From the NCBI GenBank assembly GCA_043806595.1, contig JAZDGU010000004.1, forward strand, positions 8,353-72,352: a DNA stretch of 64,000 bases, in the 5' to 3' direction. The notes below the pieces were generated by a model. That model searched no databases. It was not told the origin of the DNA and saw only the letters and a program-made list of their open reading frames with translations. This stretch comes from Candidatus Micrarchaeota archaeon (GTDB lineage: Archaea > Micrarchaeota > Micrarchaeia > Norongarragalinales > SBBD01). Each line of letters opens with the position of its first letter. Positions within the stretch are counted from its first letter, which is position 1. The translations under genes and the position numbers were made by a program. Below, in pieces: positions 5,995 to 57,334 of this stretch.

Positions 5995-6720
5995 CTACGA
6001 ATAGGCGGGGTTGTTCTGCATCTCGTCGTAGTCGGTGTGCATGGCCTTTATCTTGCTCATGTTGTCCGCGATTTTCTCCTGAATCGCCTTGCCCTCGGCC
6101 TCGAGCTGCTTGACGTCGACGTCCAGCCCCACGACGGCCTTGACCTTGTTCAGCAGCATTGCCGCGCGCTGGGGCGCCATCGGCAGGTCCACCTGCACCA
6201 GCAGGTTCGCCGCGGGGATGCCCTCGGAGGCGCATTCCGCGATGAGGATGCCGCTCACGCCCTGCGTCGCGCCCTCGCGCACGAGCTCTATGTCGAACTT
6301 GCGGAGCTTGTCGGCCATCTTCTTCGTCGAGCAGATGCCATAGACCTTGGAATCCGGGGTCTGCGACGCTATGCCAGCGAGGGAGTAGATTTCCGAGGCG
6401 TTCTTGTCCTTGGCGTACTTGATTATGCGCTGCGAGAGCGCGTAGACGACCTCCGCGGGTATCATGAACTCGGAAAAGAGGATGATGAGGTTGTGCTCCT
6501 CGCTCGCGTAGATGCGCGCCGGGGACATCGGCACGAAGTCGTGTATCGCGGCAATCGGCGGGAAGTGCGAGCTCTGTATGTAGCCGACGAGTTTCATCTT
6601 CAGCTTGTCGGCGAGGAACGAGGAGGAAATCGTGCCGATCATGCCGACGCCGGGGAATCCCTCGATGATTACGGGGTTCTTCAGCCTGACCTTTGCTACT
6701 TCGCGGATTTCCACGAGCAC
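5995..6720 (-). CDS. proteasome assembly chaperone PAC2 family protein
   Basis: 241 aa. IIEGFPGVGMIG is recalled from memory as the PAC2/ATP-grasp-like signature. Typical archaeal size. Confidence 0.7.
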   Translation of the reverse strand: MLVEIREVAKVRLKNPVIIEGFPGVGMIGTISSSFLADKLKMKLVGYIQSSHFPPIAAIHDFVPMSPARIYASEEHNLIILFSEFMIPAEVVYALSQRIIKYAKDKNASEIYSLAGIASQTPDSKVYGICSTKKMADKLRKFDIELVREGATQGVSGILIAECASEGIPAANLLVQVDLPMAPQRAAMLLNKVKAVVGLDVDVKQLEAEGKAIQEKIADNMSKIKAMHTDYDEMQNNPAYS

Positions 6721-6730
6721 GGCGACTCCC

Positions 6731-6835
6731 CTAGAATTTGGTGAAGACGGTCTTCGCGTAGTATGCGACTATCGTCACGAACAGCACGGCCGTGCCGACC
6801 AGCAGAAGATACTCGATTGCAGCCTGCGCCTTCAT
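6731..6835 (-). CDS. Flp-like type IV prepilin (class III signal peptide), 34 aa
   Basis: Hand-translated: MKAQAAIEYLLLVGTAVLFVTIVAYYAKTVFTKF. AQAAIEYLLL resembles the Flp/archaeal prepilin processing motif (G/A-x-x-A-I-E-Y). ATGA-overlapped with the upstream TadC-like gene. Confidence 0.55.
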   Translation of the reverse strand: MKAQAAIEYLLLVGTAVLFVTIVAYYAKTVFTKF

Positions 6836-7647
6836 GCGAACACCCGCGCGCCCGCCACCGCCCGGAAAACGAGCAGCGAAAACGGGGCAACAATACACAG
6901 ATACACGCCCGCTTTTTTAATGTTCCCCTCCTGCAGCGCCACGAAGCACGAGGACAGCGCGGAGAAGAGGAACAGGTAGAGCTGGCAGGCGAGAAAGAAC
7001 GCCGGCGGCACCGGCGCCGCGCCGTCAAGGGAGGCAAGGGACGCGCTCGACTGGATAAGGGAGCCGAGGATGAAGGGAAGCAGCAAGGCAGCCGCGGCGA
7101 GCAGCGTGTACTTCTGCAGGGACGCCAGCGCGGCGCCCTCTTCCGACAGGCGGAGCATTTCCCCGGCGTCCTCGGCGACGCCGTGGACCGCGCGCGAGAG
7201 CTGGCCGCCGGACTCGTGGAGCGAGACAAGCATGCGGGAGGCGCGCGAGAACGCGGGGGAGCCGTATTCTGCGGAGACCGCGGCGAACGCCCTGGCTGCT
7301 GGCACGCCGCGCCCGGCCATGGCAGAAACCCGCGCGAACGCGGAGCCGGTCTCGCCGCCGCAGGACGCGGCCTCGCAAAGCAGCTTCTCGAAGGGGGCGC
7401 CGGGAGGGGCCGAGGTCATGCGGAACAGCGCGGAGGGCAGGCCAAGCTCGAGGCCGCGGACTCTCCTTGAGAAGGCGTATTCCTCGAGCGCGGGGACGAG
7501 GAGCAGCGCTGCTGCCGCGGAATATGCGATGAGCAGGTAATCCGCTGCGAGGCCGCGGAACGCCGCGAACGCGACCGCGGAAGCGAGAATTGACGCGACG
7601 AAGTAATGGGGCAGCCTGCTACGGAAGTACTGCCATGCGGGTCCCAT
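6832..7647 (-). CDS. TadC/GspF-domain membrane protein (one T2SS-F domain)
   Basis: 271 aa, TM segments at both ends with a cytoplasmic GspF-like core (LVSLHESGGQLSRAVHGV). ATG abuts the stop of the 1129-aa gene. Confidence 0.55.
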   Translation of the reverse strand: MGPAWQYFRSRLPHYFVASILASAVAFAAFRGLAADYLLIAYSAAAALLLVPALEEYAFSRRVRGLELGLPSALFRMTSAPPGAPFEKLLCEAASCGGETGSAFARVSAMAGRGVPAARAFAAVSAEYGSPAFSRASRMLVSLHESGGQLSRAVHGVAEDAGEMLRLSEEGAALASLQKYTLLAAAALLLPFILGSLIQSSASLASLDGAAPVPPAFFLACQLYLFLFSALSSCFVALQEGNIKKAGVYLCIVAPFSLLVFRAVAGARVFA

Positions 7648-10600
7648 CTAGAGTTCCACCTTCCGCGGGCGGTTGCGGGCGAGCGCGGTTCCGGCAAGCG
7701 CGGCGAGGCCGACGGGGGCGAGCCATAGGTAGTCCGGCTGGTTGGATGGAACCGAGCGGGGGACGAGGCGGGCCGAGATTTCGGATGCGGCAAGGTAGGC
7801 GTCGAGATAAAGCTCCTGCGAGATGCCGGCGTCGATTGCCTCGAGGGCTAGCCTGTCCTCCTCGCCGCCGAACTGGCCTACGCGGCTACGCGCGATTTCC
7901 GCCTGATCCAGCGCCATCTCCCGGATTTCCGAGTTGTATGAGTAAAGCGCCGAGGAAGCGCCTTGCAGGGATGCGAGGAAACTCGAGATTCTTGCCGCAG
8001 ACTGCCTGCCCAGCACATCCGGGTCCTTCTCCACAGCATTCGCAACCGCATCGAGCTGCTTGAGTGCAGCCGAAGCCGACTTGAATTCCGCTGCTGCGGC
8101 TGCGGCAAGCGCGGGCTTGCCCGCCCTGGAGGACGAGAAGAAGCGGGAATATTCCTCAATGGCGGTCGAAAAATCCGTTCGCGAGGCCGAGAAGTTCTCC
8201 AGCAGTTCGGAGACCGCCTGCGTCGAATCGGGTGCGCCTTCCGCGCCGGCCGGGTTCCATGCGGCCGCGGATGCCGGCGCGCCTACAGCGTCGGACGCGG
8301 GCGGGGGCGTCGCAAGGATTGCGGGCTGCGCGCCCTCCATCGACGCAAGGGACTGTTCGACCTCGTAGGCGGCCTCGAGCGCCTCCTCCCAACGCGAATC
8401 CAAGGCAAGGCTCTTGGCGTCCGAGAGTTTGGCCTGAAGCGGGGAATCCGGCACGGACGCAAGGCGTTCATCGAGCTCGGCGAGCTTGAGCCGGAACGCA
8501 TCCTCGGAGAAGCCCGCGCATTCGACGGACAGCGCGACGGAACGGGCCTCGCCCTCGCGCCAGGCACCTGAAGAAAGCCTCGCCCAGAGCATTCCTCCGG
8601 CATGCCCGACCGACGCCTTCAGTTCTGGCGGGAAGGACGCATTCGCGGAAAGTATTTCGCACGGCAGGGAGTCGTCGAACCGGAGTTCCGCGGAGCCGAG
8701 GTCCGAAAAAACGTTCCGGTAGTGTAGCGCGTAATCGAACCGTACGGGCAGGCCGTAAACGGGAACCGTTGTCCGGGAGGCGGAATGCTCGAACGGGTTT
8801 GCGGAGAAGAATGTGATTTCCAGATCGGTCCTGCCGGATGCAGCGTCGAGGACCAGCTCCAGCCAGCCTTTGGAGAACGTATCGCCGTAGGGCGCGGAAG
8901 ACGACACGGAATAATTCGAGCCCGGGGGAGCCCGAATCCGGAACAGCACGGGCAGGGGCAACGAGGAGTCGATTGAAACGGAAACCGCCTTCTCGGCGGA
9001 ATCCAGCCCAGCGGCAGACGCGCGCTCATTCATTGCGACAATCCGCGACGGCACCGCGGAGAAGGCGATGGCGACGGAATAATCCGATTGGATTACGCCG
9101 GAGAAGACCGCGCGCAGGCCGCCCTGACCCGATTCAACGGAAAGTCCGGGGGAGGCGTTCACAACGCGGGCGTCGGAGGCGTTGAACGGAAGGGCGACAT
9201 AAAACTTTTCCGGGGACTCGAAGGGCAAGGAATTCCCGAATGAGACCCGGGCTTCAACGTCGGCCCGCGCCCCAGGCTCGGTGGGGACAGCTGAAAATTG
9301 GACGAGCATGCTCCCCTCCAGCTCGCCCTGGATAAGCCGGCCTTTGTCCTTCTCCACGCCTGCGCGCACTGACGAGAGAAAAACCCGCATCGGCTTGAGG
9401 CGCCCGACGGCCTGCAAAGGGTCCAACTTGCCGCCGTGGAAAAACCCGGAATAAGCGGAAAGTGCATCGCGCTCGCCCGCCGAAAGGAACGCCTCCGCGG
9501 CCTCGGCGAATGCGAAGTCGGATTCGACGGAAGCGAACTCCTCGAACGCAGCGCGCCGCAGGCCTTCCTCGATGCCCAACAGTTCTCCGGAAAGAACCCT
9601 GACCGCGGCGTAATTGCCCTCGGAAGGCTCGGACAGGCGGCCGAGTGCGGACGCAACGGTCGACAGCCTCTGCCGGAACGCGGTGACGTCGATGCCGTCC
9701 TTCTCCGCGCCGGCGAGAAGGCCGCCGAGGCGCTGCGCCGCGCCTTCCGCCTCGGAATGGGCGAAGGCATATGCGTCCTGCGCGCCGCATGCCTCGCGGA
9801 TCCTGCCGAGGAAGACCAGCTGGGCCAGCAGGTGCGTGATCCTCGCGCCCGCCGAATTCTTCGACGCGTATTCGACGCGCATCTTCCCGAAATCGGAGAG
9901 CATCGACTGGAGCACGGCATACGATACCGGCTCGCCGCGCCTGCCTTCGGCAAGGAGCCTCACTTCCGCTTCTTCCCTCGCGGACCTTCCCTCGAGCAGC
10001 ATGCGCGCCGAGGACGCCGACTCCATGAGCTCGCCCCCGCCGTCCGAAATTCCCTCGAGGATGGCGAGTGCGCGCCGGCGCAGGACCACGGCGCGGCCGA
10101 GGTAGCCGCGGCTCCTCGCCGAAAGCAAATCATCCGCCTGCCTGGCAACCAGCTTTGCGAGCGACCCGTCCTCCTCGAGTGCGCGCACCCCGTCCTTGAA
10201 GGAGACCGGCCCGCTTGAGGGCTCGAAGATGCCGCCGTAGATGTACGGATACGCCTCCTCCGGGATGTCGGCAAGCTCCTCCTGCTTGATGCGGGCGAGC
10301 ACTGCATCCGCGGCCAGCCGTGCCACCTCGAGTGCCTCGCCGAGGCTCCGGCTCGCCTGCCACATGCCGGTTATGGATTCGTCGATGCGGCGGGCAAGCG
10401 AAAAAGTGCACGCCAGCACGGAATTCGGGCCGGCGAGGTCCTGCAGCACCGACAAATTGGCGATGTTCGCGAGGTAGTCCTCGCTGAGGGCGCGGAGCTT
10501 TGACGAAGACGAGACCATCCTCTGCCCGAGGGAGGTGCCGTCCGACGACGAGGAAAGGAGATGGCGCTCGGTCTCCCTGATTTCGTTGCGCACGCCCTGG

Positions 10601-11037
10601 GCGAAGTCATCGGACTCGTCCTGCAGGGCCTCGAACTCCGCGAACCGCGAGTCAAGCGCCTCGAGTCCGGCGCGGGCAGCCGAGGACGCCTCGTTGAGCG
10701 CGTCGACGGCCAGGTAGTGGCAGCCGAGGACGACGAGCGGCCGCAGGTGCGGGGCGATGTGGAACACATCCTGCACGGATGCGAGCAGCTTAGCGTGCCG
10801 GAGGTGCGTGCGGGCGGAATCGTAGTGCGCAAGCGCCTTGGCGAAACCCGCGCCTTGCAGCACGGGCAGCCCATCGAGGTCCATCGCCGACACGTAGCGG
10901 CAATTCGAGGACAGCGAGGCGAGCTTGACGAAGGAGACGTGCACTTCCGGAAGAAGGTAGTTGTATTCCGAAAGCGATGAGGCGCCCGCGAGGAACGCGA
11001 GCAAAAGCGAGGCAAAGACGGCACGCAAGCGAATCAC
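7648..11037 (-). CDS. large secreted alpha/beta protein, N-terminal signal peptide and C-terminal TM anchor with basic tail (1129 aa)
   Basis: Signal-like N-terminus (MIRLRAVFASLLLAFLAGASS). Ala/Leu/Glu/Arg-rich helical halves flank a Ser/Val-rich beta region. C-terminus LAPVGLAALAGTALARNRPRKVEL. No Walker A motif. Translationally coupled to the TadC-like gene. Confidence 0.6.
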   Translation of the reverse strand: MIRLRAVFASLLLAFLAGASSLSEYNYLLPEVHVSFVKLASLSSNCRYVSAMDLDGLPVLQGAGFAKALAHYDSARTHLRHAKLLASVQDVFHIAPHLRPLVVLGCHYLAVDALNEASSAARAGLEALDSRFAEFEALQDESDDFAQGVRNEIRETERHLLSSSSDGTSLGQRMVSSSSKLRALSEDYLANIANLSVLQDLAGPNSVLACTFSLARRIDESITGMWQASRSLGEALEVARLAADAVLARIKQEELADIPEEAYPYIYGGIFEPSSGPVSFKDGVRALEEDGSLAKLVARQADDLLSARSRGYLGRAVVLRRRALAILEGISDGGGELMESASSARMLLEGRSAREEAEVRLLAEGRRGEPVSYAVLQSMLSDFGKMRVEYASKNSAGARITHLLAQLVFLGRIREACGAQDAYAFAHSEAEGAAQRLGGLLAGAEKDGIDVTAFRQRLSTVASALGRLSEPSEGNYAAVRVLSGELLGIEEGLRRAAFEEFASVESDFAFAEAAEAFLSAGERDALSAYSGFFHGGKLDPLQAVGRLKPMRVFLSSVRAGVEKDKGRLIQGELEGSMLVQFSAVPTEPGARADVEARVSFGNSLPFESPEKFYVALPFNASDARVVNASPGLSVESGQGGLRAVFSGVIQSDYSVAIAFSAVPSRIVAMNERASAAGLDSAEKAVSVSIDSSLPLPVLFRIRAPPGSNYSVSSSAPYGDTFSKGWLELVLDAASGRTDLEITFFSANPFEHSASRTTVPVYGLPVRFDYALHYRNVFSDLGSAELRFDDSLPCEILSANASFPPELKASVGHAGGMLWARLSSGAWREGEARSVALSVECAGFSEDAFRLKLAELDERLASVPDSPLQAKLSDAKSLALDSRWEEALEAAYEVEQSLASMEGAQPAILATPPPASDAVGAPASAAAWNPAGAEGAPDSTQAVSELLENFSASRTDFSTAIEEYSRFFSSSRAGKPALAAAAAAEFKSASAALKQLDAVANAVEKDPDVLGRQSAARISSFLASLQGASSALYSYNSEIREMALDQAEIARSRVGQFGGEEDRLALEAIDAGISQELYLDAYLAASEISARLVPRSVPSNQPDYLWLAPVGLAALAGTALARNRPRKVEL

Positions 11038-11080
11038 CCTACGCCCTTTGCCTCAAGGGGGTTTGGGGGGCTAGCAATTA

Positions 11081-11332
11081 TTAAATCGTTGCCGGGGGGT
11101 CTTCGGGAGGCTTGAATCCGGGTTCGGGCCCGAGGCCCTCAAGCTCGCTCGCGATGGCCGAGCGGGCGAACCCCTGCGATTCGCGCTCGCGGCGCGCCTC
11201 AAGCGCATCGTCGCGCTCGGCCTCGCGCCTGCCCTTCATGCGGTAGAACACGAGGACAAACGCGCCGACGACCAGGAGCAATACGGCCACCAGCCCGAGG
11301 ACTGCGAGAAGCCGCGCGCCGAATTCGTCCAT
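11081..11332 (-). CDS. small single-TM membrane protein
   Basis: 83 aa, TM helix LLAVLGLVAVLLLVVGAFVLVF then a charged tail. First gene of the pilus-like operon. Confidence 0.45.
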   Translation of the reverse strand: MDEFGARLLAVLGLVAVLLLVVGAFVLVFYRMKGRREAERDDALEARRERESQGFARSAIASELEGLGPEPGFKPPEDPPATI

Positions 11333-13179: not shown

Positions 13180-14535
13180 ATGAAAGCCCCCGCGTTGCTT
13201 CTGCTTGCCGTCATGGCCTCGTTCGCCACCGCGCTGCCCGACCTGGTTTCCAGCGTCTATGCTTCCAACTCGATGCCATACGTTGGCGACACCGTCACAG
13301 TCTTTACCACTACCAGCAACATCGGATCCGATTGGGCGTCGAGCTCGGTCACAAGCCTGTTCCACCGCTACGGGGGGGCGTTATTCAATGTCCCGCCGCT
13401 GGCCCCTGGCGCCAACATCACCAATACGTCCTCCTTTACGTGCAATGAGACCGGATTCTTCAACTTCTCCTCCTTCGCCGACTTCTATTTCAGCGTGTCG
13501 GAGTCCAACGAGAACAACAACTATAATACCTACTCGATTTTCTGCCAGCCGGCGCAGAACCAGACGCTGCCCGACCTGACGGCATCGATCGACTTTAGCA
13601 ACCAAAACCCGAGGGTCGGCGACACCGTCACGGTCCACGTCAAGACGCAGAACATCGGCGACGGCGCGGCGGGCACCAGCTGGACGTACGCCTGGGACCC
13701 GACGGCGTACATCCCATACATGTTCTTCGTACCGGGGCTTGCGCCGGGACAGGCCGCGGACAACAACTTCACGTTCACCTGCCCGTGGGCGGGCAACTTC
13801 GGGTTCAACGCCTCCGCCGACTTCAGGCACAATGTCGACGAGTCGAACGAGGGCAACAACTACGCCTTCGCCAATCTCTACTGCGCGCCCATCGTCACCG
13901 TGACCCCGCCGCCGGGGCCGGTAATCACCAACGTGAGGGCGGAGAACGTCACCGCCGTCTCCGCGGCCATCAGGTGGTTCACCGACGTGCTCTCGGACAG
14001 CCGCGTGGAATACGGGCTCGCGAGCGGGCAATACGGGTTCGCCGCCGGCAACCCGAATTACGTGACGTACCACGTGGTGCCGCTCAACGGGCTTCGGCCG
14101 TTGACGAAGTACTTCTTCCGCGTGAGGAGCTGCAACCGGGGGGGCTGCACTTACAGCCCGGAGTCCTCCTTCAAGACGAAGACGATGGCGGTGGAAATCG
14201 GGAAGAGCGACACGGGCTATGCCCTGCTCGCGCAGATGCTCAACACCAACCTCAACACCGAGCTCAATGAGCTAAAAGGCGTCGACGCGTCCGAGGCCGC
14301 CAAGTACGAGCCTGCGGCGCGCAGCCTCAACGAGCTCGCGGCGGTCAACCCTCCGGCCTCCATCGGCAGGCTGCAGCAGCTCCGCGCGATAATCGACGAC
14401 GCGAGGAAGAAGGCGAGCGGCACGAGGACTGCGCTGCTTGCGGTCGCACTCCTCGGCATCGCGGTGATTTCCACGTGGTACTTCTGGGGCAAGCGCAGGA
14501 CAAGGATGAGGATGCACAAGAAGCGCCGGCGCTGA
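13180..14535 (+). CDS. secreted surface protein with two CARDB domains, one fibronectin-III-like domain and a C-terminal TM anchor
   Basis: Signal peptide MKAPALLLLAVMASFATA. Two repeats of PDL ... GDTVTV ... QNIG ... ESNExNN (CARDB). FN3-like VTNVRAENVTAVSAAIRWFTD ... YFFRVRS. C-terminal TM plus KRRTRMRMHKKRRR. Confidence 0.75.
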   Translation: MKAPALLLLAVMASFATALPDLVSSVYASNSMPYVGDTVTVFTTTSNIGSDWASSSVTSLFHRYGGALFNVPPLAPGANITNTSSFTCNETGFFNFSSFADFYFSVSESNENNNYNTYSIFCQPAQNQTLPDLTASIDFSNQNPRVGDTVTVHVKTQNIGDGAAGTSWTYAWDPTAYIPYMFFVPGLAPGQAADNNFTFTCPWAGNFGFNASADFRHNVDESNEGNNYAFANLYCAPIVTVTPPPGPVITNVRAENVTAVSAAIRWFTDVLSDSRVEYGLASGQYGFAAGNPNYVTYHVVPLNGLRPLTKYFFRVRSCNRGGCTYSPESSFKTKTMAVEIGKSDTGYALLAQMLNTNLNTELNELKGVDASEAAKYEPAARSLNELAAVNPPASIGRLQQLRAIIDDARKKASGTRTALLAVALLGIAVISTWYFWGKRRTRMRMHKKRRR

Positions 14536-21089: not shown

Positions 21090-21332
21090 ATGACTAACGT
21101 GACACTGTCCTTCCCGGATGCGTTCTGGAGGAGGATGAAGGCGTTCCCGGAAATCTGCTGGTCGAAGGCAGTGCGGAGCGTCATCGAAGGCAAGCTCGAC
21201 GACTTCGAGGAGGCCGAGCGCCTCGTCGGAAAAAGCCGCTTTCGCGAGGAGGACGTCGCGCGCCTTTCAAAGAAGGTGGACGACGCCATGGCCAGGCATG
21301 CCGGGGCGCTGTTGAATGAAGCTCGTCGTTGA
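21090..21332 (+). CDS. RHH-type antitoxin (paralog 2 of 3)
   Basis: 80 aa, MTNVTLSFPDAF N-terminus paralogous to 847 and 56672. 17-nt overlap with the PIN gene. Confidence 0.6.
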   Translation: MTNVTLSFPDAFWRRMKAFPEICWSKAVRSVIEGKLDDFEEAERLVGKSRFREEDVARLSKKVDDAMARHAGALLNEARR

Positions 21333-21726
21333 CGCCAATATCCTCCTTTCCGCGCTGCTGCGCAAGGGATTGACCCAGCGGCTCTGGTTCCATCCGTCGT
21401 TGCGGCTCAGCGCCCCCGAGTTCCTTCTCGTCGAGGCGCGCGCGCATATAGAGGAAATGAGGCAAAAATACGGCGGCACACAGGACGAGCTGATGCGTGT
21501 GTTCAGCCTGCTGGAGAAACAATTAACCCTGGTTCAGGATGAAAAGCTCCTGCCCTTCCTGCCCGCGGCTTCCACGCTCACCAAGGACAGGAAAGACTTG
21601 CTTTATCTGGCCTGCGCCCTTTATGAGGATGCGGCCTTGTGGACGCACGACAAGGGCTTCAAATCCCAGCGGCGGATCAAAATATACTCCACGCTGGAAC
21701 TCGGGGAAGAAATCGGTTCGCTTTAA
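21316..21726 (+). CDS. PIN-domain toxin (paralog 2 of 3)
   Basis: 136 aa, MKLVVDANILLSALL ... WTHDKGF. PIN acidic residues conserved. Confidence 0.75.
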   Translation: MKLVVDANILLSALLRKGLTQRLWFHPSLRLSAPEFLLVEARAHIEEMRQKYGGTQDELMRVFSLLEKQLTLVQDEKLLPFLPAASTLTKDRKDLLYLACALYEDAALWTHDKGFKSQRRIKIYSTLELGEEIGSL

Positions 21727-32221: not shown

Positions 32222-32256
32222 TTTAGTGTAAAAAGTGTTAAAGGTGTTAAACGTGT
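32222..32256 (+). promoter_or_regulatory. three tandem approximately 9-bp repeats (AGTGTAAAA / AGTGTTAAA / GGTGTTAAA) overlapping the start of the vapB-like gene
   Basis: Visible tandem GTGTTAAA units immediately before or over the GTG start codons. Candidate autoregulatory operator. Confidence 0.35.
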
Positions 32257-32519
32257 CCGAATCGGGGCTGATTACGAAGAAGGTGCCGCGCAGGATCGTG
32301 CCGAAGATCCGCAGGCTGCAGGCCAACTACATGCTGAGGCACCGCAGACGGATTTCCGAGGCGGAAATCATCGAGAAGGGGGTCGAGAAACTCACGGAAG
32401 ACGACCTGATGGAAACCGGAAAGAAAAGCGCCAGATGGGAGGACTTTTTCGGAATGGACAAGTCAAGGACAAAAGGAGATTCGCGCACCGATGTTGACAA
32501 GGTAGTTTACGGGATTTGA
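32235..32519 (+). CDS. vapB: VapB-like antitoxin
   Basis: 94 aa, GTG start (alternative GTGs at 32244 and 32253). KKVPRRIVPKIRRL DNA-binding-like N-terminus. 3-nt gap to vapC. Confidence 0.5.
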   Translation: MLKVLNVSESGLITKKVPRRIVPKIRRLQANYMLRHRRRISEAEIIEKGVEKLTEDDLMETGKKSARWEDFFGMDKSRTKGDSRTDVDKVVYGI

Positions 32520-32522
32520 GCC

Positions 32523-32921
32523 ATGATTTTCGTCGACACGAGCATTTTCATAGCCGCGGCGCGCGCCAACGACCCATCCCACGCCCAAGGCTTGGCGCTC
32601 ATACAACGCGCAAAAAGGGAGGGGGAGACCCTCATCACTTCCGACCATGTGCTTGACGAGACTGTGACATACCTGCAGGCAAAGGGAGGGAAGGAGAGGG
32701 CAAGCGAGGCTGGCAGGCAGATGCTGCGCCTGGAGAAGCTTCAAATGGAATACAATTCTCCCCCGCGCACGGACGCCGCCCTGAGGATCGTGGGAAAAAT
32801 CGACGGGATGAGTTTCTGCGACGCCTTGAGCATCGTCGTCATGCAGGAACTCGGAATCAGGACCATCTACTCTTTCGACTCCGACTTCGACAAAATCGCC
32901 GGGATAAGGAGAATCGAATAG
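32523..32921 (+). CDS. vapC: VapC PIN-domain ribonuclease toxin
   Basis: 132 aa. MIFVDTSIFIAA ... ITSDHVLDET ... SFCDA ... YSFDSDF gives the classic PIN acidic quartet. Confidence 0.8.
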   Translation: MIFVDTSIFIAAARANDPSHAQGLALIQRAKREGETLITSDHVLDETVTYLQAKGGKERASEAGRQMLRLEKLQMEYNSPPRTDAALRIVGKIDGMSFCDALSIVVMQELGIRTIYSFDSDFDKIAGIRRIE

Positions 32922-35413: not shown

Positions 35414-35539
35414 CGAGGCAAGGTCATGGCGAAATAAACTTCAATAATACCCTTAAAAATGGAGGTTAAAAAGGAGGCTGCCTGGGGGGCGGCAGCGGGA
35501 GAAAAGACATTTATTAACCCGGCAATGCACTTGACGGTA

Positions 35540-36406
35540 ATGCACAACGCGGCGCGCGGCCAGGCCGCGCTGGAGTACGTCATACTGCTCGCAGGCATAC
35601 TCCTCATCATCTTCCTCACCATAGCGGTCATGCAGGCGCTGCAGGGGCGCTCAAAAGCTCAGATTGAGGAGAGCGTGGGGACGTGGAAAACGTTCGTCTG
35701 CCTCTCCAAGTACCTCGCCGAACCCGACAGCACGCTGCTCGCATACAAGCTCGACGGCCTGCAGGGCGGGACAACGCCGGACTCCAGCGCCAAGCACAAC
35801 GACGGCATCCTCAAGGGCGGCCTTCCCACGCTCGACTCGGCGAACTGCAAGTTCCCGCCGTGCCTTCACTTCGGCGCAGCCCCGGGCCACGTCGAGAGCA
35901 GCAAGCCCATCGAGGGCGTGGGGAGCATGACGTTTCTGGCTTGGATAAGATTCGACGACAGCGGGGACGGCAGCCAGCCCGTCATAGCGGCCATCGCCAA
36001 CTCGTTCGACCTCTCGTTCACGCAAGTCGATTACATAGTCTGGTCGATGGACGACCCTCCCCCGCCGGCCATGGAAGCCGCGTTCCACTTCTCGGTCTGG
36101 ACCGGCCTCTTCAACCCCGTAATAGTGGATCCGGAGGACATGACCCTCGAGGGATACCACCACATCGCCGCGACGTACAACGAAACCACAGGCACGGCGA
36201 ACGTCTACATCGACGGCAGGCTCAATGCCACTGTAAGCGGCCCTGCGAACAAGCCGATGTGGCACTCCAATCTGCCGCTGTCAGTGGGCAACAAGCAGAA
36301 CGACGCGTCACAGGCGTTCAAGGGCAACATCGACCAGGTCGAGTTCTACAGCAGGGAGCTGACCGCGGAGGAAATCATGCAGGAGATAAGGTGCCAGCCC
36401 GCCTGA
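35540..36406 (+). CDS. class III signal peptide (pilin-like) protein with LamG/concanavalin-like lectin domain
   Basis: N-terminus MHNAARGQAALEYVILLAGILLIIFLTIAV is prepilin-like. C-terminal FKGNIDQVEFYSRELTAEEI matches the Laminin_G_3 signature. TATA TTTATTAA about 25 nt upstream suggests a leaderless start (35525 is an alternative). Confidence 0.65.
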   Translation: MHNAARGQAALEYVILLAGILLIIFLTIAVMQALQGRSKAQIEESVGTWKTFVCLSKYLAEPDSTLLAYKLDGLQGGTTPDSSAKHNDGILKGGLPTLDSANCKFPPCLHFGAAPGHVESSKPIEGVGSMTFLAWIRFDDSGDGSQPVIAAIANSFDLSFTQVDYIVWSMDDPPPPAMEAAFHFSVWTGLFNPVIVDPEDMTLEGYHHIAATYNETTGTANVYIDGRLNATVSGPANKPMWHSNLPLSVGNKQNDASQAFKGNIDQVEFYSRELTAEEIMQEIRCQPA

Positions 36407-36887
36407 ACCTGCGCTTCATCCTGCGAAGGCCGGCAAGGATCTTCGCGTTGTGCGAGCCCCGCCAGTAGGCCTTGCCGCACGAGCCGCAGACGAGGAATTC
36501 CGCCGCATGAAGCCAGGACTTCCTCGGCACTTTGCCTTCCAACGATTTTTTCGGCGTTTTCTTCAGGCGGCCGCTGCACTCGGGACAGACAGACGTGCTC
36601 GGCACCGAATCCTCCCGGATTGCGGAAAGGTCGAGGCCGGCGGCCCTGCAGAACTCCAGCACCTGGCCGTCGAGGTCCGAGGAACGCAGGAGCAGGCAGC
36701 GGCAGTAGCTCGATGATTTTACAGAGAGAGCGACGTCGCGGGTCACGAGGACAGCCCTCTCCCCGATGCACTGGCGGATTATGTCGTCGTCGGATTGCGA
36801 GCGCGGGGGCGAGACACGAACGCCGAGCATGCGCAGCCAGCGCGCGAGCCTCGCGAGCATCACGTCGGCGACGAAATTCATGCGCAT
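36375..36887 (-). CDS. Mut7-C RNase domain (DUF82) protein with C-terminal zinc ribbon
   Basis: 170 aa. N-terminus MRMNFVADVMLARLARWLRMLGV matches the Mut7-C/DUF82 start. C-terminal CPECS ... CGSCG. 32-nt convergent overlap with the LamG gene. Confidence 0.65.
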   Translation of the reverse strand: MRMNFVADVMLARLARWLRMLGVRVSPPRSQSDDDIIRQCIGERAVLVTRDVALSVKSSSYCRCLLLRSSDLDGQVLEFCRAAGLDLSAIREDSVPSTSVCPECSGRLKKTPKKSLEGKVPRKSWLHAAEFLVCGSCGKAYWRGSHNAKILAGLRRMKRRFRRAGTLSPA

Positions 36888-36951
36888 GAATGGCTCTCCG
36901 CGGGGAGCGGTTATAAAGGCTTATATACGCCGCGAGGGAAAGGCAGTCATG

Positions 36952-39051
36952 CCGCCCAAGCAGAGGAAGGCGAAGGAGGAGAAGTTCGAGTCGCTCTACA
37001 CGCAGAAGTCGCAGGAATACGTCGAGGAGGAGAAGGAGCAGAGGAGGGAAAGCTTCTTCGTCGGGCTGACGCGGTTCATGTACTCCCGCAACAGGTCCGG
37101 CGGCGCGGGCGCTAAGTTCTCGCCGGAGCAGAAGGCGCTATTCGACTTCCTCAACTGGAACATCCCCGCGGAGGAGTACTACGCTACGGCGAAGGCGCTG
37201 CTGACCTACGGGCTGGGCGTCGGCGTGGTGTTCGGCGCGGCGTTCTATTTCTACCTCGGGCCGGAGCTCACGACGGACACGATGATGATATACCTCGGAA
37301 GCCTACTGTGTCTGCTCCTGCCGGTGACGCCGAGCATTTTCTACCAGTATTATCCGGGGATGGCGGCGGAGCGCGAGAGGATGCTTTCGCTCGCGTACAT
37401 CCCGGAGATCGTAAACTACCTCGTGATGAGCCTGAGGCTCAACCCCAACCTCGAGAAGGCCGTCGAGTTCGCGGCGAACCACGGCCGGGGGAAGATAGCG
37501 GACGAGCTCAAGGAGCTCGTATGGGAGGTGCAGATAGGGACGTTCCTCAGCGTGGAGGAGGGCCTGGACGCGATGGCTTACCGATGGGGGGGCTACAGCG
37601 ACGACTTCAAGCACGCGCTCATGATCATCCGCTCGTCCTCGCTGGAGACGGACCACGTGCGAAGGGTAGAGCTGCTGGAGAAGGCCTCGTTGGACGTGCT
37701 CGAGGGCAGCAAGGAGAAGATGGACATCTACGCGCGCAACTTGCACCAGCCGACGGTGTTCCTCTACTACTTCGGGATACTCCTGCCGCTCATGCTCGCC
37801 ATTATCCTGCCCATCGGGTCGGCGTTCGTGAAAGGCCTGCCGATCGCGCAGGCGGGGTTCATATTCCTCATATACTGCGTACTCCTGCCCGCGGGCATCT
37901 ACATCTACGGGAACAGCATCCTCGGGGGCAGGCCGCCGACTTACATCCCGCCGCAAATCACCGACCGCTACCCCGGGCTGCCGAGAAGGGGCAACATGCG
38001 GTTCCTCGGCATGGAGTTCTCGTACACCCTCGCGGCCGTGGTCGTCTTCGCCGCGGTGCTGCTCGCGGGCAACTTCGCGGACAACCTCACGCTCCAGCAG
38101 ATTCCGACGTACCTGCAGGACGAGTACCTCGCCTCGACGCCGCACGTGGAGCTGCTCGGGCTCAAGCTGTACGTGTTCTCGATACTCGCGGTGGTGCTTG
38201 CGGTAAGCTTCGCCTTCTCGGTCTACCTCTGGGGGAAGTTCGGCGAGCGGAAGAAGGTGCAGGACGAGATACGCGAGATGGAGAGGGAGTTCAAGGACGC
38301 GACGTACGTGCTCGCGTCGAGGCTGGGGGAGAACAAGCCTATGGAGGACGCGCTCGCCTACGCCATCGACTTCCTCCCGAAGAGCAAGGTCGGGGAGAAG
38401 TTCTTCAGGCGCGTGCTTGAGAACGTCACTTTGCTCGGCATGACGCTGGAAGCGGCCGCGTTCGACAGGACGTACGGCGCGCTGCGCTACATCCCCTCGC
38501 AGATCATCCGCAGCGGCACGAGGCTCATGGTGGACAGCGTGGAGCTCGGGGTCAACGTAGCCGCCAAGTCGCTCATGAGCCTCAGCTTCCAGATGAGGAA
38601 CGCCCAGAAGATAGACGAGACGCTGCGCAGGCTGCTCGCGGACATCACGACGCTGCTGAGCACCATGTCCACGTTCGTCGTGCCGGTAGTCATCGCCGTA
38701 GTCAGCTCGCTTCAGACCATCATCATAAACTCGTTCGCGGGCATGAGCCTCGGGGATTCTCTGGGGAACACCAACGTCCAGCTCGGCGGCCTGAGTTTCA
38801 AGGGCTTCTCGTCGCTGCTGGACACCTCCGGCATAAGGGAGACCACGGCGTCGCCCGGGGAGTTCCTCCTGATAATGGGGCTGTACGTGGTCGAGGTCGT
38901 CATACTGCTGACGTACTTCAACTCGCAGGTCGAGGACAGCAACAACAAGCTGCACACCTACACGAGCATCGCCAAGACGCTGCCCATCGCGGCGATAATC
39001 TTCGCCGTCACGGCGTTCCTCGCGAGCAGCACCCTCTCCGGATTCGGATGA
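36952..39051 (+). CDS. FlaJ/TadC-like polytopic membrane protein with two T2SS-F (GspF) domains
   Basis: 699 aa from the ATG preceded by GAGGGAAAGG. Two cytoplasmic GspF-like modules each followed by TM triplets. The ORF track starts at 36766. Confidence 0.7.
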   Translation, partial: PPKQRKAKEEKFESLYTQKSQEYVEEEKEQRRESFFVGLTRFMYSRNRSGGAGAKFSPEQKALFDFLNWNIPAEEYYATAKALLTYGLGVGVVFGAAFYFYLGPELTTDTMMIYLGSLLCLLLPVTPSIFYQYYPGMAAERERMLSLAYIPEIVNYLVMSLRLNPNLEKAVEFAANHGRGKIADELKELVWEVQIGTFLSVEEGLDAMAYRWGGYSDDFKHALMIIRSSSLETDHVRRVELLEKASLDVLEGSKEKMDIYARNLHQPTVFLYYFGILLPLMLAIILPIGSAFVKGLPIAQAGFIFLIYCVLLPAGIYIYGNSILGGRPPTYIPPQITDRYPGLPRRGNMRFLGMEFSYTLAAVVVFAAVLLAGNFADNLTLQQIPTYLQDEYLASTPHVELLGLKLYVFSILAVVLAVSFAFSVYLWGKFGERKKVQDEIREMEREFKDATYVLASRLGENKPMEDALAYAIDFLPKSKVGEKFFRRVLENVTLLGMTLEAAAFDRTYGALRYIPSQIIRSGTRLMVDSVELGVNVAAKSLMSLSFQMRNAQKIDETLRRLLADITTLLSTMSTFVVPVVIAVVSSLQTIIINSFAGMSLGDSLGNTNVQLGGLSFKGFSSLLDTSGIRETTASPGEFLLIMGLYVVEVVILLTYFNSQVEDSNNKLHTYTSIAKTLPIAAIIFAVTAFLASSTLSGFG

Positions 39052-52958: not shown

Positions 52959-53396
52959 ATGGCCAAGAGGGCGCAGGTGGGCGTCGAGATGTTCCTCGTG
53001 TTCAGCATAGCCCTCCTCGTGCTGTTCTGGTTCTCCAACTACCTCAACGCGTTCTCGTCGTCGGCCCAGAAAATCGGGGCGAACGAGCAGCAGAAGCTCG
53101 CGCTCAAGGACCTCGCGAAACTGGCGAACGACGTCTGCGTCATGCGCGCCAACCTGACCGTCAAGGCGCCGTGCATAACCGTGGGGAGCGAGAGCATGCT
53201 TTACCGGCTCTACGGCACCCTGCCGGCGAACGTGATCCGCATGAACAACACGTTCACGAACCATTCGAGCGCGGAGAAGGTCAACTGCAACGTCGACGTC
53301 ATGGTGCCGGACTACGTGCGGTGCACGTCGAGGGAAATGCTGTGCATGTACAAGTCCGGGGACGACGTGGTCATCACGAGGGGGGCATGCACTTGA
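52959..53396 (+). CDS. class III signal peptide pilin-like protein 1
   Basis: 145 aa. MAKRAQVGVEMFLVFSIALLVLFWF. TATA GTTTTAAAAACC 25 nt upstream. Cys-rich mature domain. Confidence 0.55.
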   Translation: MAKRAQVGVEMFLVFSIALLVLFWFSNYLNAFSSSAQKIGANEQQKLALKDLAKLANDVCVMRANLTVKAPCITVGSESMLYRLYGTLPANVIRMNNTFTNHSSAEKVNCNVDVMVPDYVRCTSREMLCMYKSGDDVVITRGACT

Positions 53397-53719
53397 GGGC
53401 GCAGGTTTTCAGCATAGACTTCGTCGTCGCGACGACCATACTCCTGCTCGGGCTCGGCATAGCCCTGCAGACCGTCGACCTCGTCCAGAAGGACGCCGAC
53501 ACCTACGCGAACATGCAGACCAACAACGCCGAAACCGTCGCGGAAGGCCTGATGCGTTCCGTAGAGGGGTTCGCCAACCACTCGCCGTACTGCTTCAGGT
53601 ACAGCAACGGCACCAGCACGTGCGGCGGCTTCTCCTGCGCGTTCAACACGTTCACCGCGACGAGGCTCGTCAACTGCGAGGGCGCGGTGTGCTCGATGGA
53701 GGTAAGGACCTGTGAATAA
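53387..53719 (+). CDS. class III signal peptide pilin-like protein 2
   Basis: 110 aa. MHLRAQVFSIDFVVATTILLLGLGIAL. Start overlaps the upstream stop. The ORF track merges it into 53171..53719. Confidence 0.5.
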   Translation: MHLRAQVFSIDFVVATTILLLGLGIALQTVDLVQKDADTYANMQTNNAETVAEGLMRSVEGFANHSPYCFRYSNGTSTCGGFSCAFNTFTATRLVNCEGAVCSMEVRTCE

Positions 53720-54710
53720 GGGATTCGTGTTCACCGCCGACGCGCTGTTCGCGCTCACCGCCATCTCCGTGCTGGCGACCTCGTACGTCATCATCCACTC
53801 CATCCAGTACCAGTCGCAGAAGTACGCCAGCCTCGAGAACCAGGGGAGGGACTACCTGCGGCTGGTGTACCGCGAGGGCTTCGCGAACTTCACGAACGAG
53901 TCCTTCCACGCACTGACGGGCCACAACTGCTACGGGTGCATCCAGAGTCCCTTCTGGGGCTTCGAGACGGAAGCGGACCTTGAGGACTGGACAATCATTT
54001 ATGGCTCTTGGCAGCTAAAAGACATAGGCGCAGGAGTCTCCCATATTGTCCTAATAGAGGCAGGTACCCCCGGCTTTTCAAATTCGACCATTACGACCGG
54101 CAAATACTACTGGAGCAACTACTCGGTCAGCGCCAAGGTTGCCATGGGAACCACAGGATCCACGGATATAATGGGAATAGGCATTTATTCCAACAGCACC
54201 GGCGGCAGGTACGTTTGCGCTCTTGATTTCAGAACCGGCACATACTACATTGCCGTCTACAAGGCGTTCAACTCGACCAGTCCGTATGTTCTGCCGGCGG
54301 ATACCGCCGTCGCAAGAACGCCACTGCCGGTAGGATATGACTCGCATGTGTTCCACGACCTCAACGTCTCCGCATTCGGCGGGGTAGTCAACTGCTCCAC
54401 ATACGATAATACGAACACAATCAGCGCCGTTTACTACGACCCCAACCCCCTCGACAGCGGCAAGGTGACCCTGGGACGTGGAGAATACCAAAGCGCGGCA
54501 CAATACGATAACATTACCATCAATTTCGTCGCCGGGTACCCGCCGAGGGACGTGCCGTTCGTGATGCGCAGCTCGATGCTCACCTACCCGTGGGAGTGCG
54601 GGTGCAGCCCTTACGAGCCGAACTGCTCGATTAGCAACGCTTCGCCGTGCCTGCGCTACCAGGAGCCGCTGGAAGCGGACTGGGTGAAGCACGAGGTCTG
54701 GGTGAACTGA
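53712..54710 (+). CDS. pilin-like secreted protein 3 with large N-glycosylation-sequon-rich domain
   Basis: 332 aa. MNKGFVFTADALFALTAISVLA, then more than 15 NxS/T sequons. 8-nt overlap upstream, ATGA overlap downstream. Confidence 0.55.
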   Translation: MNKGFVFTADALFALTAISVLATSYVIIHSIQYQSQKYASLENQGRDYLRLVYREGFANFTNESFHALTGHNCYGCIQSPFWGFETEADLEDWTIIYGSWQLKDIGAGVSHIVLIEAGTPGFSNSTITTGKYYWSNYSVSAKVAMGTTGSTDIMGIGIYSNSTGGRYVCALDFRTGTYYIAVYKAFNSTSPYVLPADTAVARTPLPVGYDSHVFHDLNVSAFGGVVNCSTYDNTNTISAVYYDPNPLDSGKVTLGRGEYQSAAQYDNITINFVAGYPPRDVPFVMRSSMLTYPWECGCSPYEPNCSISNASPCLRYQEPLEADWVKHEVWVN

Positions 54711-56585: not shown

Positions 56586-56671
56586 ATGAACGCGGGGAAG
56601 AGACCAGTAAGAAATGAAAAGTATTAAAAATATTAATAGTGTGAATTTTATCAACCGAGGAGGTGATTTGG

Positions 56672-56908
56672 ATGGCGCAGATGCTTTCCGTGCCGCTGCC
56701 GGACGACCTGAAGAAGGACCTCGACAGGCACAAGGAAATTAAGTGGGTGGAGATCGCGAGGCAGGCGCTCAGGGACAAGGTGGAGGCGCTTGACGAGATG
56801 GACGAATTCTTCGCAAAAAGCAGCCTGACGGCGGAGGACGTGGAAAAGCATGCGAGAGCCGTCAGCAAGAACGTGTGGAAGAGGCATAAGAAGGAACTGG
56901 GGCTTTAG
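56672..56908 (+). CDS. RHH-type antitoxin (paralog 3 of 3)
   Basis: 78 aa. MAQMLSVPLPDDLKKDLD. SD GGAGGTGA 6 nt upstream. The ORF track starts at 56663. Confidence 0.6.
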   Translation: MAQMLSVPLPDDLKKDLDRHKEIKWVEIARQALRDKVEALDEMDEFFAKSSLTAEDVEKHARAVSKNVWKRHKKELGL

Positions 56909-57334
56909 ATGCCGATCGAACTAGCAGTGGATGCCAACGTGCTGTTCTCGGCGATGCTCGCGGACGGCACGACCAGGCGGCTCATACTCGACCGGAGGCT
57001 CAGGCTCTGCGCGCCGTCTTATTTGATGGAGGAAATGCTGAGGCACATGCGGGGCGACGACAAGCTCGCAAGAAAGCTGAACCGGACAAAAGAGGAGGCG
57101 GCGATGCAGCTGCAGAGCCTCGGGAGGCACATCGAGGTTGTGCCGCTCGAGGAGTACGGGGCCAGCATACCGGAGGTTCTGAAAGACTGCCCGGATCCCT
57201 TCGATGCCGAGTATCTTGCAGTCGCAAAACGGCGCAGCATCCCATTGTGGACGAACGACAGGAGACTCAAGAACCAGGCGGCCGTTGAAGTGCTGAACAC
57301 GCGCGAGGTCCTCGAACTGCTGGGACGGAAATGA
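56909..57334 (+). CDS. PIN-domain toxin (paralog 3 of 3)
   Basis: 141 aa. MPIELAVDANVLFSAML ... WTNDRRL. ATG abuts the antitoxin stop. Confidence 0.75.
   Translation: MPIELAVDANVLFSAMLADGTTRRLILDRRLRLCAPSYLMEEMLRHMRGDDKLARKLNRTKEEAAMQLQSLGRHIEVVPLEEYGASIPEVLKDCPDPFDAEYLAVAKRRSIPLWTNDRRLKNQAAVEVLNTREVLELLGRK

Follow-up and report, generated by a model that had tools for sequence, protein, structure and literature searches.

A 64,000-nucleotide stretch of Candidatus Micrarchaeota DNA (contig JAZDGU010000004.1), hereafter the window, carries on its minus strand adjoining genes for a giant surface protein, a half-size type IV pilus (T4P) platform protein of the T2SSF family, and a prepilin of only 34 amino acids (aa), which we call the mini-prepilin. 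The reading we favor, to which we give an even chance, is that these genes form a clade-specific accessory operon of the Epd/Tad-like type IV pilus machinery of Micrarchaeota; the next gene, for a PAC2-family protein, is probably also in the operon. A functional link between the parts is favored because the abutment of the giant and half-platform genes is kept down to 25% identity, because the single conserved promoter-like element lies before the giant gene, and because the mini-prepilin is restricted to this clade. Of the features that mark an archaeal type IV filament system, the class III subunit and the T2SSF platform are present here, and no cognate ATPase was found in the 64-kb window. 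The components are of a kind known from archaeal type IV filament systems. Novelty lies in how the parts are combined, in a prepilin that is extremely short (29-31 aa when mature), and in the uncharacterized giant family, so far known only from Micrarchaeota.

The window has a G+C content of 58-66% and a strong bias at third codon positions (GC3). Five open reading frames (ORFs), of 83, 1129, 271, 34 and 241 aa, occupy the minus strand between 5995 and 11332; the first four are those described in an initial annotation of this DNA, and all four are present as described there. The features of the locus are as follows.

11081..11332, minus strand: 83-aa bitopic membrane protein with a charged C-terminal tail; ORF, no significant Pfam match
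11034..11086, minus strand: promoter-like region with TATA-like box, leader and Shine-Dalgarno (SD)-like GGTGAT, read from the sequence
7648..11028/11037, minus strand: giant surface protein, 1129 aa (GTG at 11037) or 1126 aa (TTG at 11028); ORF
6832..7647, minus strand: single-domain T2SSF platform protein, 271 aa, ~5 transmembrane (TM) segments; Pfam PF00482, 28.5 bits (cut-off 25.2)
6731..6835, minus strand: mini-prepilin MKAQAAIEYLLLVGTAVLFVTIVAYYAKTVFTKF, 34 aa; Pfam PF04021 Class_IIIsignal
5995..6720, minus strand: PAC2-family protein, 241 aa; Pfam PF09754, 2.4e-38; starts 10 nt after the mini-prepilin stop

The initial annotation regarded the first four genes as translationally coupled. 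This description fits the giant, T2SSF and 34-aa genes, whose stop/start pairs are also as it gave them: the TAG of the giant directly precedes the ATG of the T2SSF gene, and the TGA of the T2SSF gene overlaps the ATG of the 34-aa ORF to form ATGA. It does not fit the 83-aa gene, which is set apart from the giant by a 43-52 nt spacer with a TATA-like box. This A/T-rich box, TTTAATAATT at 11076-11086, overlaps the TAA stop of the 83-aa gene. On the coding strand, the leader GGCAAAGGGCGTAGGGTGAT (11052-11033) follows after about 25 nt; GGTGAT, an SD-like sequence, closes the leader, and the start codon is next. Pattern matching found the same TATA box, a GGCAAAGAG..GGTGA leader and a TTG or GTG start upstream of the giant in four related loci (L001, L006, L002 and L007), so that box and leader are kept in five genomes, the window included, among which the giants are merely 25-46% identical. 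We read the box and leader as the putative promoter and Shine-Dalgarno-bearing leader of an operon that starts with the giant. Conservation of the leader beyond its SD-like part further suggests that it may contain a regulatory RNA or protein-binding element.

Because it lies upstream of the promoter-like box, the 83-aa gene is probably outside the operon. A homologue occupies the same position in L006 but is absent from the L002/L007 arrangement, and an 83-aa ORF upstream of a distant giant in L019 is unrelated to the window's protein. The layout of the leader also bears on the start of the giant. Since GTG 11037 falls within the SD-like GGTGAT, and given the leader upstream, translation probably starts at TTG 11028; the 1129-aa ORF first annotated does exist, but the protein would then have 1126 aa, as in the NCBI record of a Candidatus Micrarchaeota hypothetical protein to which it is 100% identical.

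At the other end of the operon, the PAC2 gene may be co-transcribed. A PAC2 gene comes after the T2SSF gene in every locus recovered, from DPANN contigs of 26% GC to Micrarchaeota of 66% GC. It directly follows the T2SSF gene or the mini-ORF in the window and in L001, L002, L006, L013 and L015-L017; in L018, ~1.5 kb of other genes lie between. This adjacency may reflect a gene order that DPANN have kept, or PAC2 may be linked in function to the pilus machinery.

The block of giant, T2SSF (263-279 aa), tiny ORF (33-38 aa) and PAC2 recurs in three other Micrarchaeota lineages, and parts of it are found more widely.

L001: giant 46% identical to the window giant
L006: giant 37% identical to the window giant
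L002-L005: giant 25% identical over ~950 residues (E 1e-77)
L013, a short contig: T2SSF, tiny ORF, PAC2
L015 and L016, low-GC DPANN contigs: ATPase, 582-aa two-domain T2SSF, PAC2
L017, a shortened contig: 582-aa T2SSF and PAC2
L018: ATPase, T2SSF, T2SSF, further genes, PAC2

At the giant/T2SSF junction the two genes meet as TAG-ATG, overlap by 4 nt, are adjacent, or lie 3 nt apart in the four lineages that span 25-46% identity. Neither the giant nor the mini-ORF occurs in L015-L018, and from these gene orders ATPase, two-domain TadC and PAC2 looks like the ancestral layout. Recovering the family took a sensitive search: word-indexed searches gave two matches each for the giant and the T2SSF protein, a profile search did no better, a locus search of the genome contigs with a four-sequence alignment gave two loci, and exhaustive HMMER searching was needed to see the family.

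The mini-prepilin scores 24.7 bits against PF04021 (cut-off 23.7). The predicted class III cleavage is at MKA/Q (the slash marks the cut), with Glu at +5, and would leave a mature peptide of 31 aa that is essentially one hydrophobic helix. The initial annotation had called it Flp-like; the prepilin signal is real, but it is an archaeal class III signal peptide, and the ORF has no Pfam match to Flp_Fap. Orthologues of 33-38 aa lie at the same position in L001 (MKAQTAIEYLLLVGAGVVFVTIVAYFVKVGLNR), L006 (MKAQGTLEYLLMLGTAVALVTIISYFLKTALTKTS), L002 (MKLWNRRKAQPAIEYLLALGMGVVFVTIIAYFVKNAVQ) and L013 (MKPQRMRAQPAIEYLLLIGASVVFVTILAYFIKLTLNR), and the mature length is 29-31 residues across the set. Three of these four orthologues score 21.8-26.3 bits against PF04021. 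All five sequences keep K/R at -2, Ala at -1, Gln at +1 and Glu at +5, within the motif KA/QxAxEYLL. Glu5 and a full class III motif are features of polymerizing type IV pilin subunits.

Conservation of the 34-aa ORF in relatives had been chosen beforehand as the check on which its standing would depend, and it is conserved in four other lineages. Pairwise among the window, L001, L002 and L006, moreover, 9-13 of the 27 core codons differ by synonymous changes only; judged by this codon pattern, the mini-ORF encodes a protein and is under purifying selection. We reject a recent truncation or a chance ORF on account of the conserved length and position together with the largely synonymous substitutions. 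The ATGA overlap with the T2SSF gene is found in 4/5 lineages. The mini-prepilin gene occurs only in the clade in which the giant precedes the T2SSF gene.

As the initial annotation had proposed, the 271-aa protein is a single-domain match to the T2SSF model; it has orthologues in L001, L006, L002 and L013. It aligns best to residues 324-577 of the 582-aa two-domain T2SSF protein of L015 (1.7e-46), compared with 7e-16 for the N-terminal half, and by this alignment it is the C-terminal (TadB-like) half of a two-domain archaeal TadC/FlaJ-type platform. TadB of Tad systems likewise matches the C-terminal half (PMC6668835). The proposed lack of a second platform protein is true of the locus but not of the window, where a second T2SSF-like gene lies at 36766-39051.

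The giant, of ~120 kDa, has no match in Pfam, NCBIfam, PHROG, PADLOC or PDB sequences, and a motif search found no Walker A motif, which bears out the first description of it as a protein with no recognizable domain or Walker motif. When 1.84 billion cluster representatives were searched exhaustively with HMMER (E<=1e-3), 52 emerged as the family of the giant, the full-length ones being of ~1100-1300 aa; all members with a source name come from Micrarchaeota, Micrarchaeia or Norongarragalinales. The depth of the alignment mattered for AlphaFold2 (AF2) modeling: two sequences gave a pLDDT of 48, and 38 sequences gave a pLDDT of 86.7, with a pTM of 0.48. Combined with signals read from the sequence, the model gives the following architecture, in which the signal peptide, helical and beta regions, C-terminal TM helix and basic tail noted in the initial annotation were all found.

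Residues ~1-22: Sec-type signal peptide
Residues ~22-575: helical-bundle region with helices of 40-53 residues (AF2)
Residues 577-843: beta-sandwich domains (AF2)
Residues 845-1090: second helical region with a disordered Pro/Ala-rich linker at 904-936 (AF2)
Residues 1103-1120: C-terminal TM helix, followed by the short basic tail RNRPRKVEL

The ectodomain, with a pI of 4.9, is acidic and carries six N-glycosylation sequons. The predicted mature N-terminus of the window giant is LSEYNYLL, and the corresponding (A)LSEYxYLL is the most conserved short motif of the family (residues 20-30 of the window giant). It is superficially like the IEYLLL of the mini-prepilin, though the signal of the giant is of the Sec type: a class III signal was considered and rejected because the hydrophobic stretch precedes the conserved SEY motif. 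Also conserved in the family are Cys46, Cys106, Cys793 and Cys840, a GYL motif, and the C-terminal anchor, after which the cytoplasmic tails of many members end in a K-E-L-like sequence. Within the clade the TM helix is unusually well conserved (LWLAPVGLAAL.G.ALARN).

No Pfam domain was found in any of 38 family members. S_layer_N (PF05123) and S_layer_C (PF05124) in particular match neither the window giant nor these 38 members; DUF2341, vWA and the PilY1 beta-propeller likewise have no Pfam or NCBIfam match in the giant, nor a Pfam match in the 38 members. The Micrarchaeota S-layer protein of the literature carries PF05123 (bioRxiv 10.1101/2021.04.28.441871). The giant was rejected as the main S-layer protein on the grounds that it is without S_layer domains and that separate S_layer_C genes exist, and as a phage or defense protein on the grounds that it matches nothing in PHROG or PADLOC. 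Foldseek against the PDB gave weak, low-scoring matches, to ribophorin I of the oligosaccharyltransferase (OST) complex (E 9e-5, TM-score 0.09-0.17), integrin calf/thigh domains and mu-homology domains. We read these matches as generic beta-sandwich similarity; taken together, the fold searches gave generic helical-bundle and beta-sandwich matches only.

No T2SSE ATPase was found in the locus, as first annotated, or anywhere in the 64-kb window, whether by a Walker-A regular expression or by tblastn with the FlaI-like ATPase of L002 (nothing at E<10). A prepilin peptidase was sought through the GxGDxK motif and Peptidase_A24, and neither was found among the window proteins scanned, which did not include every ORF. 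Both scans cover the 64-kb window, part of a 72-kb contig. An ATPase and peptidase immediately outside the window would, according to the initial annotation, have made this an ordinary Tad locus. One flank of the locus holds PAC2, a PALP enzyme and an FAD/NAD oxidoreductase; the other holds YbjQ, the CCA-adding enzyme, a CARDB/fn3 surface protein and topoisomerase I (TopA); with ordinary housekeeping genes on both sides, an ATPase cannot sit directly beside the locus as part of a contiguous Tad-like locus.

Relatives show where such an ATPase may be placed. In L002-L005, a 527-aa FlaI-like ATPase (NCBIfam 6.9e-94) and two T2SSF genes (382 and 303 aa) are found 3.7 kb upstream, DnaJ and one reverse-strand gene lying between this operon and the giant; L007 has the same arrangement, keeping the end of the ATPase operon before the contig end cuts it. 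In L015, L016 and L018, an ATPase gene lies directly upstream of the orthologous T2SSF gene. With the ATPase near the block in L002-L005 and within the platform locus in distant DPANN, the simplest reading of these gene orders is that the window locus arose from a normal archaeal T4P locus by rearrangement and dispersal, and is most likely supplied with ATPase and peptidase in trans. T2SSF proteins are not known to act without their ATPase. The two further class III-like genes and the second T2SSF-like gene in the window also imply that the genome must process prepilins.

If the favored reading holds, the operon would be transcribed from its own promoter and its genes translated in a coupled fashion. 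The mini-prepilin would enter the membrane and be cut after MKA, presumably by a class III signal peptidase whose gene lies elsewhere. The half-size T2SSF protein would form the platform, as a homo-oligomer or with other T2SSF paralogues, and could be driven in trans by a FlaI/TadA-type ATPase from elsewhere in the genome. The platform would then draw the 31-residue helices out of the membrane and pile them up as a thin pilus or pseudopilus made of helices only. Exported by Sec, the giant would be held beside the platform by its C-terminal TM helix, possibly in physical contact with it. Its elongated ectodomain, stabilized by disulfides, would be long enough to span the pseudo-periplasm, so that the giant could be an envelope-spanning scaffold or sheath for the filament, or else an adhesive surface with which the filament works. 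A bolder version, which we regard as improbable, is that the shortest type IV pilin known and the half-platform make up a helix-only piston or pseudopilus, with the giant as its sheath or as the part through which it acts. If true, the helix-only piston would be a new functional class of type IV filament machine, with which these episymbiotic archaea cross their own S-layer or make contact with hosts.

Several findings weigh against the operon being an accessory of the pilus machinery. The mini-prepilin is only ~1 bit over the PF04021 cut-off, and its L002 orthologue has no Pfam match. A free-standing pilus of such subunits seems physically questionable, since a subunit of 31 residues lacks the globular domain that would shield the hydrophobic filament core. 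In the 64-kb window of the source genome, no ATPase was found and, among the proteins scanned, no prepilin peptidase. Finally, distant giants (~20% identity: L009-L012, L019 and L020) adjoin no T2SSF or prepilin gene, and because they do not, the basic role of the giant is independent of pilus genes and does not need the pilus module; the coupling is then an innovation of one clade. In L009, L011, L012 and L019, the gene next to the giant encodes a conserved soluble cytoplasmic protein of ~200-220 aa.

L009 6114-6785: ~220-aa partner of the distant giant
L011 13972-14580: ~220-aa partner of the distant giant
L012 13718-14371: ~220-aa partner of the distant giant
L019 11444-12109: ~220-aa partner of the distant giant

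This protein has the motif HELKWK..GGGEF..YFIVRTDKKT and no recorded Pfam match; in L019 its gene and that of the giant overlap by 4 nt. We considered whether these neighbors are diverged T2SSF genes and rejected the idea, as they have no hidden Markov model match and are soluble cytoplasmic proteins. The ~220-aa protein is a second, different conserved partner of the giant family.

The main rival explanation, which we consider rather unlikely, is that the adjacency of giant and pilus genes is historical. The giant would then be a general Micrarchaeota envelope protein, such as a SlaB-like membrane-anchored stalk or spacer beneath the S-layer, that in one clade landed before a remnant of the ancestral ATPase - TadC - PAC2 locus, and the half-platform and mini-prepilin would serve ordinary pili independently of it. 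This would account for a giant family that extends across Micrarchaeota with its distant members away from T4P genes, and for a T2SSF - PAC2 neighborhood that is older than the arrival of the giant. In three distant loci the neighborhood of the giant also encodes a separate S_layer_C protein, a possible need for a second stalk protein with a TM anchor was suggested by the authors of the Micrarchaeota S-layer study (bioRxiv 10.1101/2021.04.28.441871), and the fold search gave only elongated helical bundles; all of these are in keeping with a stalk or spacer. A merely historical adjacency fits poorly, however, with stop/start abutment or overlap of the giant and T2SSF genes in four lineages down to 25% identity, with a single conserved promoter-like element that stands in front of the giant, and with a mini-prepilin that is present only where the giant precedes the T2SSF gene and is missing from L015-L018.

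Two other explanations concern the prepilin and the machinery. The mini-peptide might not be a filament subunit at all: once cleaved, it could remain embedded in the membrane as a small regulatory or structural partner of the platform or of the TM helix of the giant, acting perhaps as a primer, plug or assembly chaperone, with no pilus made from it. We think this improbable. Its mature length of 29-31 residues, with no globular part to cover a hydrophobic core, the unusual conservation of the giant's TM helix within the clade, and the presence in the window of larger pilin-like candidates (a 315-aa class III/LamG protein and a 145-aa ORF with a weak class III match) are what one would expect of a membrane partner, but the conserved Glu+5 and full class III motif are not, and Epd/Tad pilins are already short and near helix-only (PMC6668835). 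It is far less credible that the locus is a self-sufficient minimal filament or adhesin system without secretion ATPase or prepilin peptidase, which the initial annotation had put forward as an undescribed system. The negative scans of the locus and window, within their limits for the peptidase, are consistent with such a system. Against it stand the relatives that keep a FlaI-like ATPase operon 2-4 kb away, the other DPANN in which the orthologous platform gene directly follows an ATPase gene, and the incompleteness of the source genome, a metagenome-assembled one; the proposal is not supported.

The rest of the window holds two further groups of pilin-like genes, a divergent surface-protein gene and a set of PIN-domain genes.

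35459-36406, plus strand: 315-aa protein with a class III signal (22.3 bits) and a Laminin_G_3/ConA-like lectin domain
36766-39051, plus strand: 761-aa polytopic protein, T2SSF 24.3 bits, just below the cut-off
52959-53396, plus strand: 145-aa ORF starting MAKRAQVGVEMFLVFSIALLVLF, weak Class_IIIsignal match (14.6 bits)
53712-54710, plus strand: 332-aa ORF starting VNKGFVFTADALFALTAISVLA
13180-14535, plus strand, divergent to the operon: 451-aa surface protein with signal peptide, two CARDB domains and an fn3/purple-acid-phosphatase-N-like domain
817-1478, 21090-21726, 32235-32921 and 56663-57334, plus strand: four PIN-domain genes (PIN_2 or PIN, E 1e-16 to 1e-24)

The 315-aa protein is likely a pilin-adhesin and, with the 761-aa protein, looks like a second pilus-like pair, for which no adjoining ATPase was found at 35459-39051. 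The 145-aa and 332-aa ORFs (52959-54710) may form a third pilin-like gene cluster. The 451-aa surface protein ends in a TM helix and the strongly basic tail KRRTRMRMHKKRRR, and L006 has a CARDB gene at the same relative position. Each PIN gene directly follows a small ORF of 80-94 aa; the three small ORFs that were scanned have no Pfam match. These four pairs within 64 kb look like VapBC-like toxin-antitoxin pairs.

Micrarchaeota and other DPANN live attached to hosts, and the molecules that make the contact are largely unknown. The operon joins an uncharacterized surface-protein family to a half-platform and to a prepilin that challenges the need for a globular pilin head. If the three parts cooperate, they would show how a type IV filament motor is linked to an envelope-spanning protein, which has a bearing on the passage of archaeal pili through the S-layer. 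Even otherwise, the giant family remains a good candidate for a protein that anchors the envelope or S-layer in Micrarchaeota.

Among known systems, the nearest in kind are the Epd (EppA-dependent) pili of Methanococcus maripaludis and bacterial Tad/Flp pili, which derive from Epd-like systems. The initial annotation used the Tad/Flp label for the whole locus; a type IV filament-type module is indeed present, but in an archaeon, and with a class III signal, the label is mere analogy. Flp pilins are longer than the mini-prepilin, at ~40-50 aa when mature. A bacterial Tad/Flp system is defined by a Flp/Fap pilin, TadB plus TadC, the TadA ATPase, the TadV peptidase and, in diderms, an RcpA secretin, whereas the window locus is archaeal and has a Class_IIIsignal peptide, one T2SSF gene and no ATPase. 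The archaeal Epd-like pili are a sister group of Tad, and both have single-T2SSF-domain platform genes and short pilins (PMC6668835), so that the likeness to the window operon lies in the short, near helix-only pilin and in the single-domain platform genes. Epd-like pili are further marked by a platform split between two single-T2SSF-domain genes and by a dedicated EppA peptidase and ATPase in the locus or close to it. The differences are that the window operon has one half-platform gene only, that its locus is without ATPase, peptidase, TadZ/MinD-like ATPase or minor pilin, and that a C-terminally anchored 120-kDa protein is coupled upstream. Its clade also has a shorter pilin, 29-31 aa when mature as against methanogen precursors of ~70 aa (PMC4858521).

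A precedent for the giant comes from Thermoproteales, whose T4P loci (clade 4 of Makarova, Koonin and Albers 2016) encode a large, C-terminally anchored 'S-layer-like' protein with conserved cysteines (PMC4858521). A short form of TadC also exists in archaeal T4P loci, and the two kinds of locus are alike in that a short TadC-type protein is accompanied by a large secreted one that has conserved cysteines and a TM helix at its C-terminus (PMC4858521). They differ in that the Thermoproteales loci include the ATPase, and in that the giant here, which is without a shown sequence relationship to their protein, belongs to a family so far known only from Micrarchaeota that also occurs without adjoining pilus genes. 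SlaB-type stalk proteins of Sulfolobales resemble the giant in their Sec signal, elongated ectodomain and C-terminal TM anchor, and in plausibly spanning the pseudo-periplasm; the giant has no sequence or fold match to them, no S_layer_N or S_layer_C domain, and another domain order. Like PilY1/DUF2341-type proteins, which are thought to be adhesive or sensing, the giant is a large non-pilin protein encoded with pilus genes, but it is anchored in the membrane at its C-terminus, whereas proteins of the PilY1 type are carried at the pilus tip by minor pilins.

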